Shown here: piece by piece, positions 1,223 through 37,234 of the stretch
How the letters are laid out: each line of letters begins with the position of its first letter
How positions within the stretch are numbered: position 1 is the first letter of the stretch
Origin: Chloroflexota bacterium
Lineage (GTDB): Bacteria > Chloroflexota > Anaerolineae > Anaerolineales > Villigracilaceae
DNA: 64,000 nt
Reading direction: 5' to 3'
Assembly: GCA_016191955.1 (NCBI GenBank)
Contig: JACPVC010000006.1
Coordinates: 7,920-71,919 of the forward strand
Made by a program: the position numbers and the translations under genes
Notes under the pieces: model-generated
The model's input: only the letters and a program-made list of their open reading frames with translations
Told to the model about the DNA's origin: nothing
The model's database searches: none

Positions 1223-1364
1223 GTAGGGGCGACCCGTCAGGGATTTATGAAACCTTTTCTCATAAAGGAAGGGTCGCCCTTGTTGGCGGAAATGTATTGC
1301 TGAAATTGGGCGACCCTCCACTGGCGCAACAAAGTGATGTATTGAGTGGACGGGTCGCCCCTAC
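1223..1364. repeat. Nested REP-like palindromic element of the GTAGGGGCG family (two doublets)
   Basis: Perfect 16-bp terminal inverted repeat GTAGGGGCGACCCGTC (1223-1238) / GACGGGTCGCCCCTAC (1349-1364), plus an inner 10-bp pair AGGGTCGCCC (1270-1279) / GGGCGACCCT (1308-1317). Intergenic. Confidence 0.85.
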
Positions 1365-12700: not shown

Positions 12701-15700
12701 ATGATGAGATCGTCTGCGCTTTCCCCTAATATATCTCACGAAAAAAACACACTGGTTCGTGTTCTACGGTGGCGGGCAGACTTGCACCCTGAGACACTGG
12801 CTTTCAGGTTTTTGCAGGATGATGAATCTGAAAACATCACCATTAACTTTGGAGAACTTGATCGCCGGGCGCGGGCTATTGGCGCGTGGCTTGAAAGTTT
12901 CAACGCAAAAGGGGAACGTGCGCTTCTGCTCTATCCGCCTGGTTTGGATTACATTGCCGCTTTCATGGGCTGTTTATATGCTGGCGTAACAGCCGTCCCT
13001 GCATATCCGCCTCGTCTTAACCGCCCCGTGCCGCGCATCCAATCCATCGTTGACGACTCGCATGCGTCCTTTGCGCTTACTACGACAACCATCCTCTCGA
13101 ACATCGAAAAACGCTTCGAACATGCTCCAGACTTGAAAGCGCTTCATTGGTTAAACACCGAACAGGTACCGGCGGGGTTGGGAGCGGATTGGCGCGATCC
13201 CAATGTCTCGCCCGATACGCTGGCATTCCTTCAATATACATCCGGTTCCACCAGCCAACCAAAAGGGGTCATGCTCAGCCACGGCAACCTGATGCACAAC
13301 CTCGAAGCCATCAGCCGCGGGTTCCATATTGACTCGACCGTGATGGGAATTTTCTGGCTGCCAAGTTATCACGACATGGGGTTGATCGGCGGAATCCTGG
13401 AGCCGATGTATTTGGGCGGGGCAACGACTTTGATGTCGCCGCCATCATTCTTGCAGCGTCCGGTGCGCTGGCTTGAAGCCATCACTCGTTATCGCGGCAA
13501 TACATGCGGCGCGCCCAATTTCGCTTATGACCTATGTGTTGATAAAGTCACGCCTGAACAAAAGGAAACGCTGGATCTGAGTTCGTGGACTCTGGCGTTT
13601 TGCGGAGCCGAACCGATTCGACCTGAGACGTTGGAACGCTTCGCGCGCGCCTTTGCCGGGTGCGGCTTCCGAAAGGCTTCTTTCTACCCTTGTTATGGCA
13701 TGGCAGAAAGTGCGTTGATCGTCTCCGGTGCGGACGGTCCGTCTGAACCGCGGACGTTTACGGTTGATCGTAAATCGCTGGAAAGCGACCTTGTGGTTCC
13801 TTCCTCAGCAAATGAAGAAGGTTCCGTGACCATGGTGAACTGTGGTCCACCGGTCATTGACCAGAAGATCATCATTGTTAACTCAACCACCTTGCTGCAA
13901 TGTGAATCAAATCAAGTTGGCGAAATTTGGGTGGCTGGTCCGAGTGTGGCACAGGGATATTGGGGCTTGGAAGAGGAATCTCGCAGAACGTTTCAGGCAT
14001 ATGTGGCGGATACCGGCGAAGGTCCCTTTCTTCGCACGGGTGATCTTGGCTTCCTGCAAAACGGTGAACTCTTTGTCACAGGTCGTTTGAAAGACTTGAT
14101 CATCATTCATGGCAGCAATCACTATCCCCAGGATATTGAACTGACAGTCGAGACTTGTCACCCTGCTTTGCAACCTGCTGGTGGGGCAGCGTTCTCCATC
14201 ACGGGAGAGGGCAAAGAACAACTCGTCATCGTTCAAGAGGTCACACGCCAAAACAGACAGGCTGATATTAATGAAGTCGCCGGGGCAATTCGTCAGGCAG
14301 TGGCAGACAAGCATGACTTGCAGATCTTCGCCATCGTGTTGATCAAGCCGATGAGCATTCCCAAAACATCCAGTGGAAAGATACAACGCCGCGCTTGTAA
14401 AACAGCATTTCTAAATGGCGAGTTGGAAATTGTCGGTGAATGGCGGGCGAAGGCACCCTCATCCCCAGCCCTTCCCCCAAAGGGGGAAGGGAGTCGTTCC
14501 CCTCGCCCTTTGGGAGAGGGGCTAGGGGAAGTGCCCCGAAGGGGTATGAGGGCGGATGTCATTCAAGCCTGGCTGGTGACTCGCATTGCCTCCATCTTGG
14601 AAATGGACGCTACATCCATCGATCCTCGTCAGCCGTTTACATATTATGGTTTAGGTTCTGTTCAAGCCGTCAGCCTCACAGGAGACTTGGAAGATCTGCT
14701 AGGTCGCAAACTCGCACCCACTCTCGCGTGGGATTACCCAACCATCGAGTTATTGGCGAACCATCTTGCAAATGATTCTCAGCCTACAAAAACAATATCA
14801 GCACTCTCCTCAAGCCAACCTTCATCATTTACCAGAGAACCGATTGCCATTATTGGGATGAGTTGTCGCTTTCCTAAAGCGGCAAGTCTGGGTGCATTTT
14901 GGGATTTGCTCCGAAACGGAGTCGATGCCATCAGTGAGGTCCCTGTGGATCGTTGGAATGTGGATGCTTTTTATTCATCCGATTTTGCCACGCCTGGAAA
15001 AGTCACTTCTCGTTGGGGCGGGTTCCTTGAAAATGTGGATTTGTTTGATACGCATTTCTTTGGAATTTCTCCTCGTGAAGCAACGCGCATGGACCCACAA
15101 CAACGCCTCTTACTTGAAGTGAGCTGGGAGGCGCTTGAGAATGCATTCATCCCACCTGCATCATTAGCGGGGACTCGCACAGGTGTATTTGTAGGCATCA
15201 GCAGCAATGATTATTCACGTTTGCAATTTGATGATGCCGAAAAAATTGACGCCTACGCGGGGACAGGTAACGCCCATAGCATTGCAGCAAATCGCCTGTC
15301 ATATTTCTATGACTTGCGCGGACCCAGCATGGCAATTGATACCGCTTGTTCATCATCATTAGTGGCGGCGCATCTGGCGTGTCAAAGTCTCCAGAACGGC
15401 GAATCAGATTTGGGCGTGGTCGGGGGCGTGAACTTAATCCTCACTCCCGAATTGACCATCACGTTCTCCCAAGCGCGAATGCTCTCTCCTGATGGTCGTT
15501 GCAAAACATTCGATGCAAGCGCGGATGGATACGTGCGCGGCGAAGGCTGCGGGGTCATTATTTTGAAGCGCATGTCCGATGCGATCCGCGATGGCGATAA
15601 CATTCTGGCGTTGATTCGCGGCTCGGCGGTGAATCAAGATGGACGCAGCAATGGCTTGACCGCCCCGAACGGGCTTGCTCAACAAGATGTCATTCGGCAG

Positions 15701-34151: not shown

Positions 34152-35630
34152 ATGACCCACACCCCAAACCTCCGCCCCGCACCCGACAAAGAACTCGTTG
34201 ACATCGCCGAGTACGTGACCAATTACCAAGTCACCAGCGACCTCGCCTACGAGACCGCGCGTTACTGTCTCATGGACGCGCTTGGCTGTGCCATGCTCGC
34301 GCTTAACTTTCCCGAATGCACGAAGTTACTTGGTCCAACCGTGAATGGAACCATCGTTCCCAACGGCGCGCGCGTCCCAGGCACAAACTATATCCTCGAC
34401 CCCATCACCGCCGCGTTCAACCTCGGCTCCATGATTCGCTGGCTCGATTACAACGACACCTGGCTCGCCGCCGAATGGGGACATCCCTCCGATAATCTCG
34501 GCGCGATTTTGTCTGTTGCAGATTTCATTTGTAGGGGGCGGGTTTCCCGCCCCGTTAATGTGGGCGGGGAAACCCCGCCCCTACGAGTACGCGACATTCT
34601 TACCGCTTCCATCAAAGCCCACGAAATCCAAGGCATCCTCGCGCTCGAAAACAGTTTCAATCGCGTCGGTCTTGACCATGTCCTCCTCGTCAAAGTTGCA
34701 TCTACCGCTGTTGTGACTCATATGCTCGGCGGCGACAAAGAGAAAATCATCAACGCGCTTTCAAATGCGTGGATTGATGGTCAATCCTTGCGGACGTATC
34801 GTCACGCGCCAAACACAGGTTCACGCAAATCGTGGGCGGCGGGTGACGCGGCTTCGCGCGCAGTGTGGCTTTCGCTTATGGCGATGAAAGGCGAGATGGG
34901 TTATCCCACCGCATTGACAGCTCCCACATGGGGCTTCTATGATGCCTCATTCAAAGGACATCCATTTCGGTTTGGTAGGGGCGCAGCATTGCTGCGCCCC
35001 TACAATTCATATGTAATGAAAAATGTGCTCTTCAAAATTTCCTTCCCCGCCGAATTCCACGCGCAGACCGCCGCCGAGTGTGCGATGATTCTGCATCCGC
35101 AAGTCAAAGACCGTCTCAACGACATCGAACGCATCGTCATCACTACGCACGAGTCAGCCATCCGCATTATTGATAAGTCGGGTCCGCTCCACAACCCCGC
35201 CGACCGCGACCACTGCCTTCAATATATGACCGCCGTCCCGCTCATCTTCGGTCGCCTCACCGCCGACGATTACGAAGACAACGTCGCATTCGACCCGCGC
35301 ATTGATTCTCTCCGCGCGAAAATGCAAGTCATCGAAAATAAAAAATACAGCGCCGATTATCTCGACCCCGAAAAACGTTCCATCGCCAACGCCGTGCAAA
35401 TCTTTTTCAACGATGGTGCATCCACCGAAAACATTGCTGTTGAATATCCCCTCGGTCATCGCCGCCGACGCGCCGAAGGCATTCCGCTGCTCATCGAAAA
35501 ATTTAAAAACAATCTTGCCACGCGCCTTCCCGAAAACCGCATCGCAGCCATTCTCAACCTTTTTTCCAATCCACAAAAACTTGAAGGCACCCCCGCGCAC
35601 GAGTTCATGAATCTCTTTGTCGTAAAATAA
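34152..35630 (+). CDS. prpD: 2-methylcitrate dehydratase
   Basis: Long stretches match E. coli PrpD as recalled: [60 protein letters not shown]. Confidence 0.93.
34531..34584. repeat. GTAGGGG-family REP doublet in frame within prpD (site 1)
   Basis: GTAGGGGGCGGGTTTCCCGCCC...GGGCGGGGAAACCCCGCCCCTAC, 54 bp. Confidence 0.85.
34975..35003. repeat. GTAGGGG-family perfect palindrome in frame within prpD (site 2)
   Basis: GTAGGGGCGCAGCA-T-TGCTGCGCCCCTAC, 14-bp arms. Confidence 0.85.
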
Positions 35631-37091: not shown

Positions 37092-37234
37092 GAGGCATGA
37101 CAGGCTAAAACTCCACCACGAGCCTAGCCGCCATGCCTCTAGTGTAACAACAGAATAAAAATGTAGGGCAATTTGCTAAATGGCCCTGGCAAGATGCCAT
37201 CTTGCCCTACAACTTAACCTTGTTGGTGTACTAG
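37092..37234. repeat. Cluster of palindromes including a GTAGGGC-family element
   Basis: GAGGCATG/CATGCCTC (37092-37139); TGTAGGGCAA/TTGCCCTACA (37162-37211) inside imperfect CTAGT..AACA / TGTT..ACTAG ends. Confidence 0.6.

Follow-up and report, generated by a model that had tools for sequence, protein, structure and literature searches.

We observed that the prpD gene of a Chloroflexota genome carries two palindromic repeats within its reading frame. These palindromes are probably ordinary members of a GTAG REP/REPIN population, which were retained in frame in permissive spots and are translated, with the enzyme remaining functional. The window, i.e. the whole stretch of 64,000 nucleotides analysed here, comes from contig C10 (7920-71919) of a MAG of 4.34 Mb, which consists of 370 contigs and has 52% G+C.

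Two palindromes are read in frame within an intact prpD gene

The gene and the two elements are as follows (positions are those of the window).

34152..35630, plus strand: prpD (2-methylcitrate dehydratase), intact open reading frame of 492 aa, based on Pfam, the 1SZQ match and dN/dS

34531..34584, plus strand: site 1, inverted REP dimer (REPIN-like) of 54 bp, translated in frame as 18 residues, based on sequence and fold; left REP 34531-34553, spacer 34554-34561, right REP 34562-34584

34975..35003, plus strand: site 2, perfect-palindrome REP of 29 bp, in-frame reading (G)RGAALLRPY, based on sequence and fold

The prpD product contains the Pfam domains MmgE_PrpD_N (residues 17-274) and MmgE_PrpD_C (residues 298-466), and E. 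coli PrpD (PDB 1SZQ) matches it with an E value of 2e-209 in the HMMER alignment. The operon is composed of a prpB-like gene, an ABC transporter, prpD and a binding protein, and this order is kept in relatives. The nearest prpD records are labelled as Anaerolineales or Chloroflexi bacterium. We compared prpD with eleven orthologues, leaving out both sites, and obtained dN/dS values of 0.06-0.15 (about 0.08). The gene is under strong purifying selection despite the inserts.

The first-pass annotation of this DNA had reported two GTAGGGG..CCCCTAC palindromes in an intact prpD, retained in frame and each adding six residues in comparison with E. coli PrpD. Both palindromes are indeed present and in frame at the positions given above, and the HMMER alignment to 1SZQ showed six additional residues at each of the two sites. 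The ends of both elements are GTAGGGGCG/CGCCCCTAC. The expected number of GTAGGGG..CCCCTAC palindromes in the shuffled window was 0.00, and GTAGGGG alone was observed 9 times in the window vs 2.3 expected. Site 1 is built of two inverted hairpins with 8-bp stems and an 8-nt spacer, with GTAG/CTAC outermost, and the peptide GGETPPLR is encoded within it. Its fold has a free energy of -39.9 kcal/mol (z -4.6), while site 2 forms a 13-bp stem with -26.9 kcal/mol (z -8.0); in neither case was any of 200 shuffles as stable.

Site 2 is located in the linker joining the two Pfam domains of PrpD. Site 1 is located in a loop between predicted helices 112-132 and 146-167 of an AlphaFold2 model (49 sequences), a model of low quality (mean pLDDT 69) that gives no information on residues 251-311. 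The inserts are therefore placed in surface loops chiefly on the grounds of variability and of the domain boundaries.

The palindromes belong to a dispersed GTAG repeat family

There are 98 GTAGGG..CCCTAC elements in the genome, in sub-families of 27, 29, 47-48, 66-73 and ~140 bp. The 27-bp and 29-bp classes are single hairpins, and the 47-48-bp and 66-73-bp classes are inverted doublets. The 29-bp class has 11 copies; the 29-mer of site 2 is found in identical form at four other loci, and five more copies differ solely in the central loop base. We also counted GTAG followed by a perfect hairpin and found 377 units in the genome vs 75-176 for control tetramers. Every sub-family of this kind, including GTAGGTCACGC, GTAGGGGCG, GTAGCGCGAG, GTAGGGCAAG and others, begins with GTAG. 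After merging there were 272 elements, about 20 of them within verified genes. Two intergenic elements are present in the window.

1223..1364, no strand assigned: intergenic long form of the same family, 142 bp, with 16-bp terminal inverted repeats starting GTAGGGGCGACCCGTC; shares the 9-nt termini GTAGGGGCG/CGCCCCTAC

37163..37210 (C10:45082-45129), no strand assigned: intergenic 48-bp dimer of the sister sub-family GTAGGGCAA...TTGCCCTAC, downstream of a substrate-binding-protein gene

The 9-nt termini that the first of these has in common with the prpD elements bear out the kinship proposed for it earlier. Genome-wide, the long form has ~25 copies of 134-144 bp and three more of 159 bp. Single units of the GTAGGGCAA...TTGCCCTAC sub-family are found in frame in the pheT, transketolase, Mo-hydroxylase and TP_methylase genes.

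We did not find any target-site duplication or conserved flanking bases around eleven 29-mer and seven 27-mer copies. The surroundings of the other inspected 29-mer and 27-mer copies were unrelated and A+T-rich. The GTAGGGGCG-type family was present in 5/5 genus genomes tested (11-60 copies apiece). In G062 prpD is empty at both sites, yet there are 15 family copies. Therefore the empty prpD sites of G062 are not due to absence of the repeat.

In summary, the prpD palindromes are GTAG REP/REPIN elements, i.e. G+C-rich stem-loops with a 5' GTAG, with dispersed and mainly extragenic copies and with inverted doublets. Two other identities were considered and rejected. The elements have the inverted-repeat ends of a MITE, but there is no target duplication at their flanks, and the intragenic copies replace codons and duplicate none. 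Membership of the Rickettsia palindromic element (RPE) family does not agree with the GTAG tag and with units of 27-54 bp, so the elements are RPE-like in behaviour but are not RPEs.

Both sites are polymorphic among prpD orthologues

In the full-genus search prpD was present in only 4/95 genus genomes, with two copies in G046 (loci L009, L091-L099); in a first, smaller search of relatives it was found in 0 of 24 congeners. The whole-protein contig search for prpD returned mostly distant PrpDs and one close locus (L011). Because prpD is rare in the genus, the genus-level before/after comparisons were made on housekeeping genes.

The site-1 insert recurs in P0001, P0010, P0011 and P0014, all from other assemblies, and site 2 is empty in these alleles. 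P0002, P0003 and P0007, again from other assemblies, share the insert of site 2 and have something else at site 1. Since there are alleles with only one of the two sites filled, the two events were independent of each other, as had been suspected, and since the same inserts occur in independent assemblies, they are not an assembly artefact. The empty sites that the first-pass annotation had predicted for close relatives were thus present. The gene itself is a recombination mosaic, with P0001 as the nearest relative in the region of site 1 and either P0002 or P0007 in that of site 2, so shared inserts may have spread by recombination. On a prpD tree of 70 sequences with both sites masked, we counted at least 26 state changes at site 1 and at least 6 at site 2, and these counts are upper-biased, as event numbers are inflated by the mosaic structure of the gene.

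Empty alleles of site 2 read F-Q-R-P-Y, with the R-P-Y codons CGT CCA TAT, CGC CCG TAT, CGG CCT TAC or similar and never CCCCTAC. In filled alleles the same residues are encoded by the end of the REP itself, CGC CCC TAC. The earlier remark that the CCCCTAC end coincides here with conserved R-P-Y codons was therefore correct; R and Y of this motif are nearly invariant in the PrpD family and are re-encoded by the REP end. The events were not plain insertions, as first assumed. A REP usually takes the place of several native codons: at site 2 the 29-nt element together with one G supplants 12 native nt, which gives a net gain of 18.

P0002 and P0007 carry the same element at site 2 with one compensated stem pair altered. 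P0025 has a third stem there, which corresponds to the collapsed termini of the ~140-bp form, and its position and length are identical. All three stem types are common as extragenic variants within single genomes, e.g. G046, and on the P0002 contig an identical REP copy lies in the spacer immediately upstream of prpD. At site 1 some alleles have a native loop and others the 54-bp doublet, in some cases with deletions or nested inserts. A 27-bp single REP (CRGGVTPPL) of less than the length of the native loop was also seen, as were a third hairpin (PTLAP...) and an unrelated repeat with 28 copies in this genome, in which CCCTCTCCC-loop-GGGAGAGGG precedes GGGGTGAGGG. The boundaries are thus re-used among orthologues by different REP sub-families, by unrelated hairpin repeats or by nothing.

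A palindrome of the CCCTCTCCC-loop-GGGAGAGGG type was also observed in a megasynthase reading frame of the window (14456-14535). The same type is present at prpD site 1 of P0002, P0004 and P0025.

REPs are found in frame in other genes of the genome

We screened genes by a coding score followed by a Pfam check, and counted only verified genes with recognisable family members. Some hits of the coding score were chance hairpins in genes, and these were excluded from the count. About 20 family REPs were found in frame in Pfam-verified genes of this genome. The hosts include pheT (in the B3_4 domain), transketolase (in an inter-domain linker) and dnaE (in the C-terminal region), genes of a Mo-hydroxylase, an FGGY kinase and an AMP-binding enzyme (in the hinge), hemD, a tetrapyrrole methylase, a GT2 glycosyltransferase, EamA and MBOAT proteins, and aroK-aroB with two copies. 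Two of the loci are given with coordinates.

G000:C257:7571-7636 (ORF C257:6314-9439): glyQS fusion, 66-bp REP doublet in place of six codons (DKDGKP) in the beta portion of glycyl-tRNA synthetase

G000:C75:1362-1388, minus strand (ORF C75:447-2138): aroK-aroB linker REP between the shikimate kinase and dehydroquinate synthase domains

Replacement by a REP changed the net length by +18 in pheT, by +6 in transketolase and by +9, +45 or +48 in glyS. In genus codon alignments of these three genes, the same boundaries hold other sub-families or decayed relics, depending on the species. For glyS, precisely these boundaries enclose singlets or doublets of different sub-families in seven further species and a decayed relic in one more. 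We did not observe any likeness of the overwritten native codons to REP ends in pheT, transketolase, glyS or aroK-aroB.

In almost every member of the genus that was examined (L215-L243), the aroK-aroB linker derives from a REP, with the sub-family varying by species. A read-through intergenic REP may have created this fusion linker, or may now form it.

We compared the reading frames of 14 copies with GTAG in the sense strand. Eleven of them are read as GTA GGx (VGQVANLP.., VGHAFSVT) and three, namely both prpD sites and hemD, as xGT AGG. The third frame of GTAG gives a TAG stop.

Stems change less than their surroundings

At site 1 the stems and tags differ from those of P0001 at 1/40 nt, while the spacer and loops differ at 4/14 and nearby four-fold sites at 22/69. 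At site 2 the sole two differences from P0002 form one compensated pair, while 26/61 four-fold sites differ. The site-2 copies of our gene and of P0002 are each identical to extragenic copies in their own genome or contig. By these comparisons, the hairpins either stay unchanged or are copied anew from the family, and the surrounding positions drift. The conservation of the stems could also reflect selection on mRNA or DNA hairpin function.

RAYT genes and their REPs

GTAG REP/REPINs are the kind of element recognised by HUH tyrosine transposases (RAYTs). The first-pass annotation had proposed a search for a RAYT gene, and we found two.

G000:C300:7927-8439 (L005): RAYT gene flanked on both sides by GTAGGTCACGC REPs (classical REPtron); NF047646, 145 bits, cut-off 80

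C86:5405-5953: second RAYT gene, flanked by another hairpin; 94 bits

The orthologues of the C300 gene in G009, G046 and G083 are likewise flanked by REPs. Among the genomes examined, we did not find a RAYT with GTAGGGGCG REPs on both sides in the classical arrangement. The best candidate partner of GTAGGGGCG is a RAYT-like gene with a sub-threshold score of 51 bits. The RAYT-like gene G046:C16:71937-72368 (L261) takes its stop codon from the TAG of a GTAGGGGCG doublet and has no internal insert. Two paralogues of the RAYT-like HUH gene in this genome, G000:C64:3605-4303 and G000:C182:24765-25445 (both on the minus strand), have GTAGGGGCG doublets in frame directly after the HUH motif. The peptide GGETPPLR of prpD site 1 is also encoded by the in-frame doublet of at least one of these two paralogues. 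The link of the GTAGGGGCG sub-family to a transposase is circumstantial, with the RAYT-like gene as a candidate only.

Discussion

As members of the GTAG REP/REPIN population, the prpD palindromes may have had the following history. REP copies would occasionally be written into coding DNA, and the survivors would be those which kept the frame, avoided the TAG frame of GTAG and hit a permissive loop or linker. In prpD such places would be the helix-connecting loop of the N domain and the inter-domain linker. The REP overwrites a few native codons, and at site 2 its CGC CCC TAC end encodes the conserved R and Y anew. It would then be translated as a short extra loop, and PrpD would stay functional. 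In a resident copy the stems and GTAG tags would be kept or re-homogenised to the current sub-family of the genome, while the spacers drift. Dimers would form or collapse (27 <-> 54 bp), and other repeats would nest in the resident REP or supplant it. Recombination between related lineages would then shuffle the two prpD sites. We infer a RAYT behind both the writing and the replacement, and take the inserts to be neutral passengers. The DNA may have entered by RAYT-mediated cut-and-join of single strands, by microhomology or by capture in the course of repair. A bolder version, which we consider possible but rather doubtful, would treat intragenic REPs as exchangeable cassettes, whose GTAG/CTAC ends are cut by a RAYT-type enzyme to swap, double or collapse them, so that loop positions in enzymes and in the RAYT-like gene are continually rewritten at the DNA level. 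If this were true, an enzyme would drive variation in the loops and linkers of proteins, and possibly also the formation of gene fusions like aroK-aroB.

We weighed this explanation against several others. The first-pass annotation had supposed that the elements land on pre-existing CCCCTAC-like sites, i.e. that integration takes place beside such a sequence or by microhomology with it. The last 9 nt of the site-2 REP encode R-P-Y, of which R and Y are nearly invariant, exactly this junction is used by three different REP stems across lineages, and 29 nt less an 11-nt overlap gives the observed +18; moreover, HUH enzymes of the IS200/IS605 type select their targets by short sequence. However, the empty prpD alleles never have CCCCTAC, the close native alleles of site 1 read L-P-I and not P-P-L, the overwritten codons in pheT, tkt, glyS and aroK-aroB are unlike REP ends, and intergenic copies have no conserved flanks. 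The coincidence at R and Y is explained by purifying selection alone, and we regard such directed landing as unlikely. The origin of the palindromes on the spot, by template switching on native sequence, would draw on the native Q-R-P-Y codons, which could resemble half of the site-2 palindrome. The identical 29-mer is present at four other loci here and also in other genomes, though, and the stem reaches past anything that the native flank could template; an assembly chimera is opposed by the inserts common to independent assemblies. Neither local origin nor a chimera is credible to any appreciable degree.

The conservation of the stems raises the question of function. A domesticated hairpin might act in translational pausing at a domain boundary, in mRNA stabilisation or as a gyrase or nucleoid site, or the extra loop itself might be beneficial. 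Stems and tags which are far more conserved than adjacent four-fold sites, compensated pair changes, strong folds and the position of site 2 exactly at the inter-domain linker are all in line with this. On the other hand, relatives with an equally conserved enzyme have one or both sites empty or occupied by unrelated repeats, REPs behave alike in about 20 unrelated genes, and intragenic copies equal extragenic ones in sequence, as homogenisation at the level of the family predicts. We therefore find a functional role very unlikely, and retention of ordinary GTAG REPs in permissive spots remains the explanation that we prefer.

Among known systems, REPIN-RAYT systems (Bertels and Rainey, 2011) are close to the one described here. 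Our elements resemble them in the inverted REP doublets, in the single-copy RAYT flanked by its own REPs and in the presence of several populations per genome, and differ from them in that the cognate RAYT of the GTAGGGGCG sub-family is here merely a candidate. The REPORTH preprint reports that REPINs at conserved extragenic positions switch type with the RAYT of the genome, and proposes that RAYTs modify or replace REPINs (10.1101/2024.10.14.618302). Those positions are extragenic and in Pseudomonas (10.1101/2024.10.14.618302), whereas the fixed positions described here are codons within enzymes.

In-frame REPs have been described before. Di Nocera, De Gregorio and Rocco (2013, BMC Genomics 14:522) found GTAG and CGTC REPs wholly within ORFs of known proteins in several species, sometimes two per gene and with dnaE among the targets, and proposed that they form flexible linkers or loops (PMC3733652). 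Their GTAG REPs are similar to ours as G+C-rich hairpins with a terminal GTAG, which occur as singletons and inverted dimers and are mostly intergenic with a minority in ORFs (PMC3733652). From the parts of the survey that we consulted, the Anaerolineales (Chloroflexota) and the GTAGGGGCG... family appear to lie outside it, and codon replacement, the re-use of boundaries by other sub-families and stems conserved vs a neutral spacer go beyond it (PMC3733652). The phenomenon had been taken as undescribed at first. This holds for the lineage, for which we found no description, but not for in-frame intragenic GTAG REPs as such (PMC3733652). The novelty of our case lies in the lineage, in the sequence family and in a detailed series of orthologues, which extends position-fixed turnover of REPs to coding DNA.

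The analogy to Rickettsia RPEs that was drawn at first is apt with respect to behaviour. RPEs (Ogata et al. 2000, as cited in PMC3733652) are likewise palindromes which are read in frame within conserved proteins, and their translation products are tolerated at surface positions. The 2013 survey describes RPE-1 as longer, and RPE-4 and RPE-6 as CGTC-tagged and without a dedicated transposase; RPE-4/6 are equated there with CGTC REPs (PMC3733652). There is no sequence relationship between the two, and the host here is a free-living Chloroflexota, whereas that of the RPEs is obligate intracellular.

These results are a warning to annotators and structure predictors that unusual loop inserts rich in Gly, Arg and Pro come from repeats in these genomes. 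The before and after states are unusually clear and can be used to measure the entry of REPs into coding DNA and their persistence, and to ask whether RAYTs supplant them in place. In a large uncultured genus of Chloroflexota, selfish hairpin repeats shape the loops and linkers of core enzymes, namely tRNA synthetases, the replicative polymerase, transketolase and PrpD.
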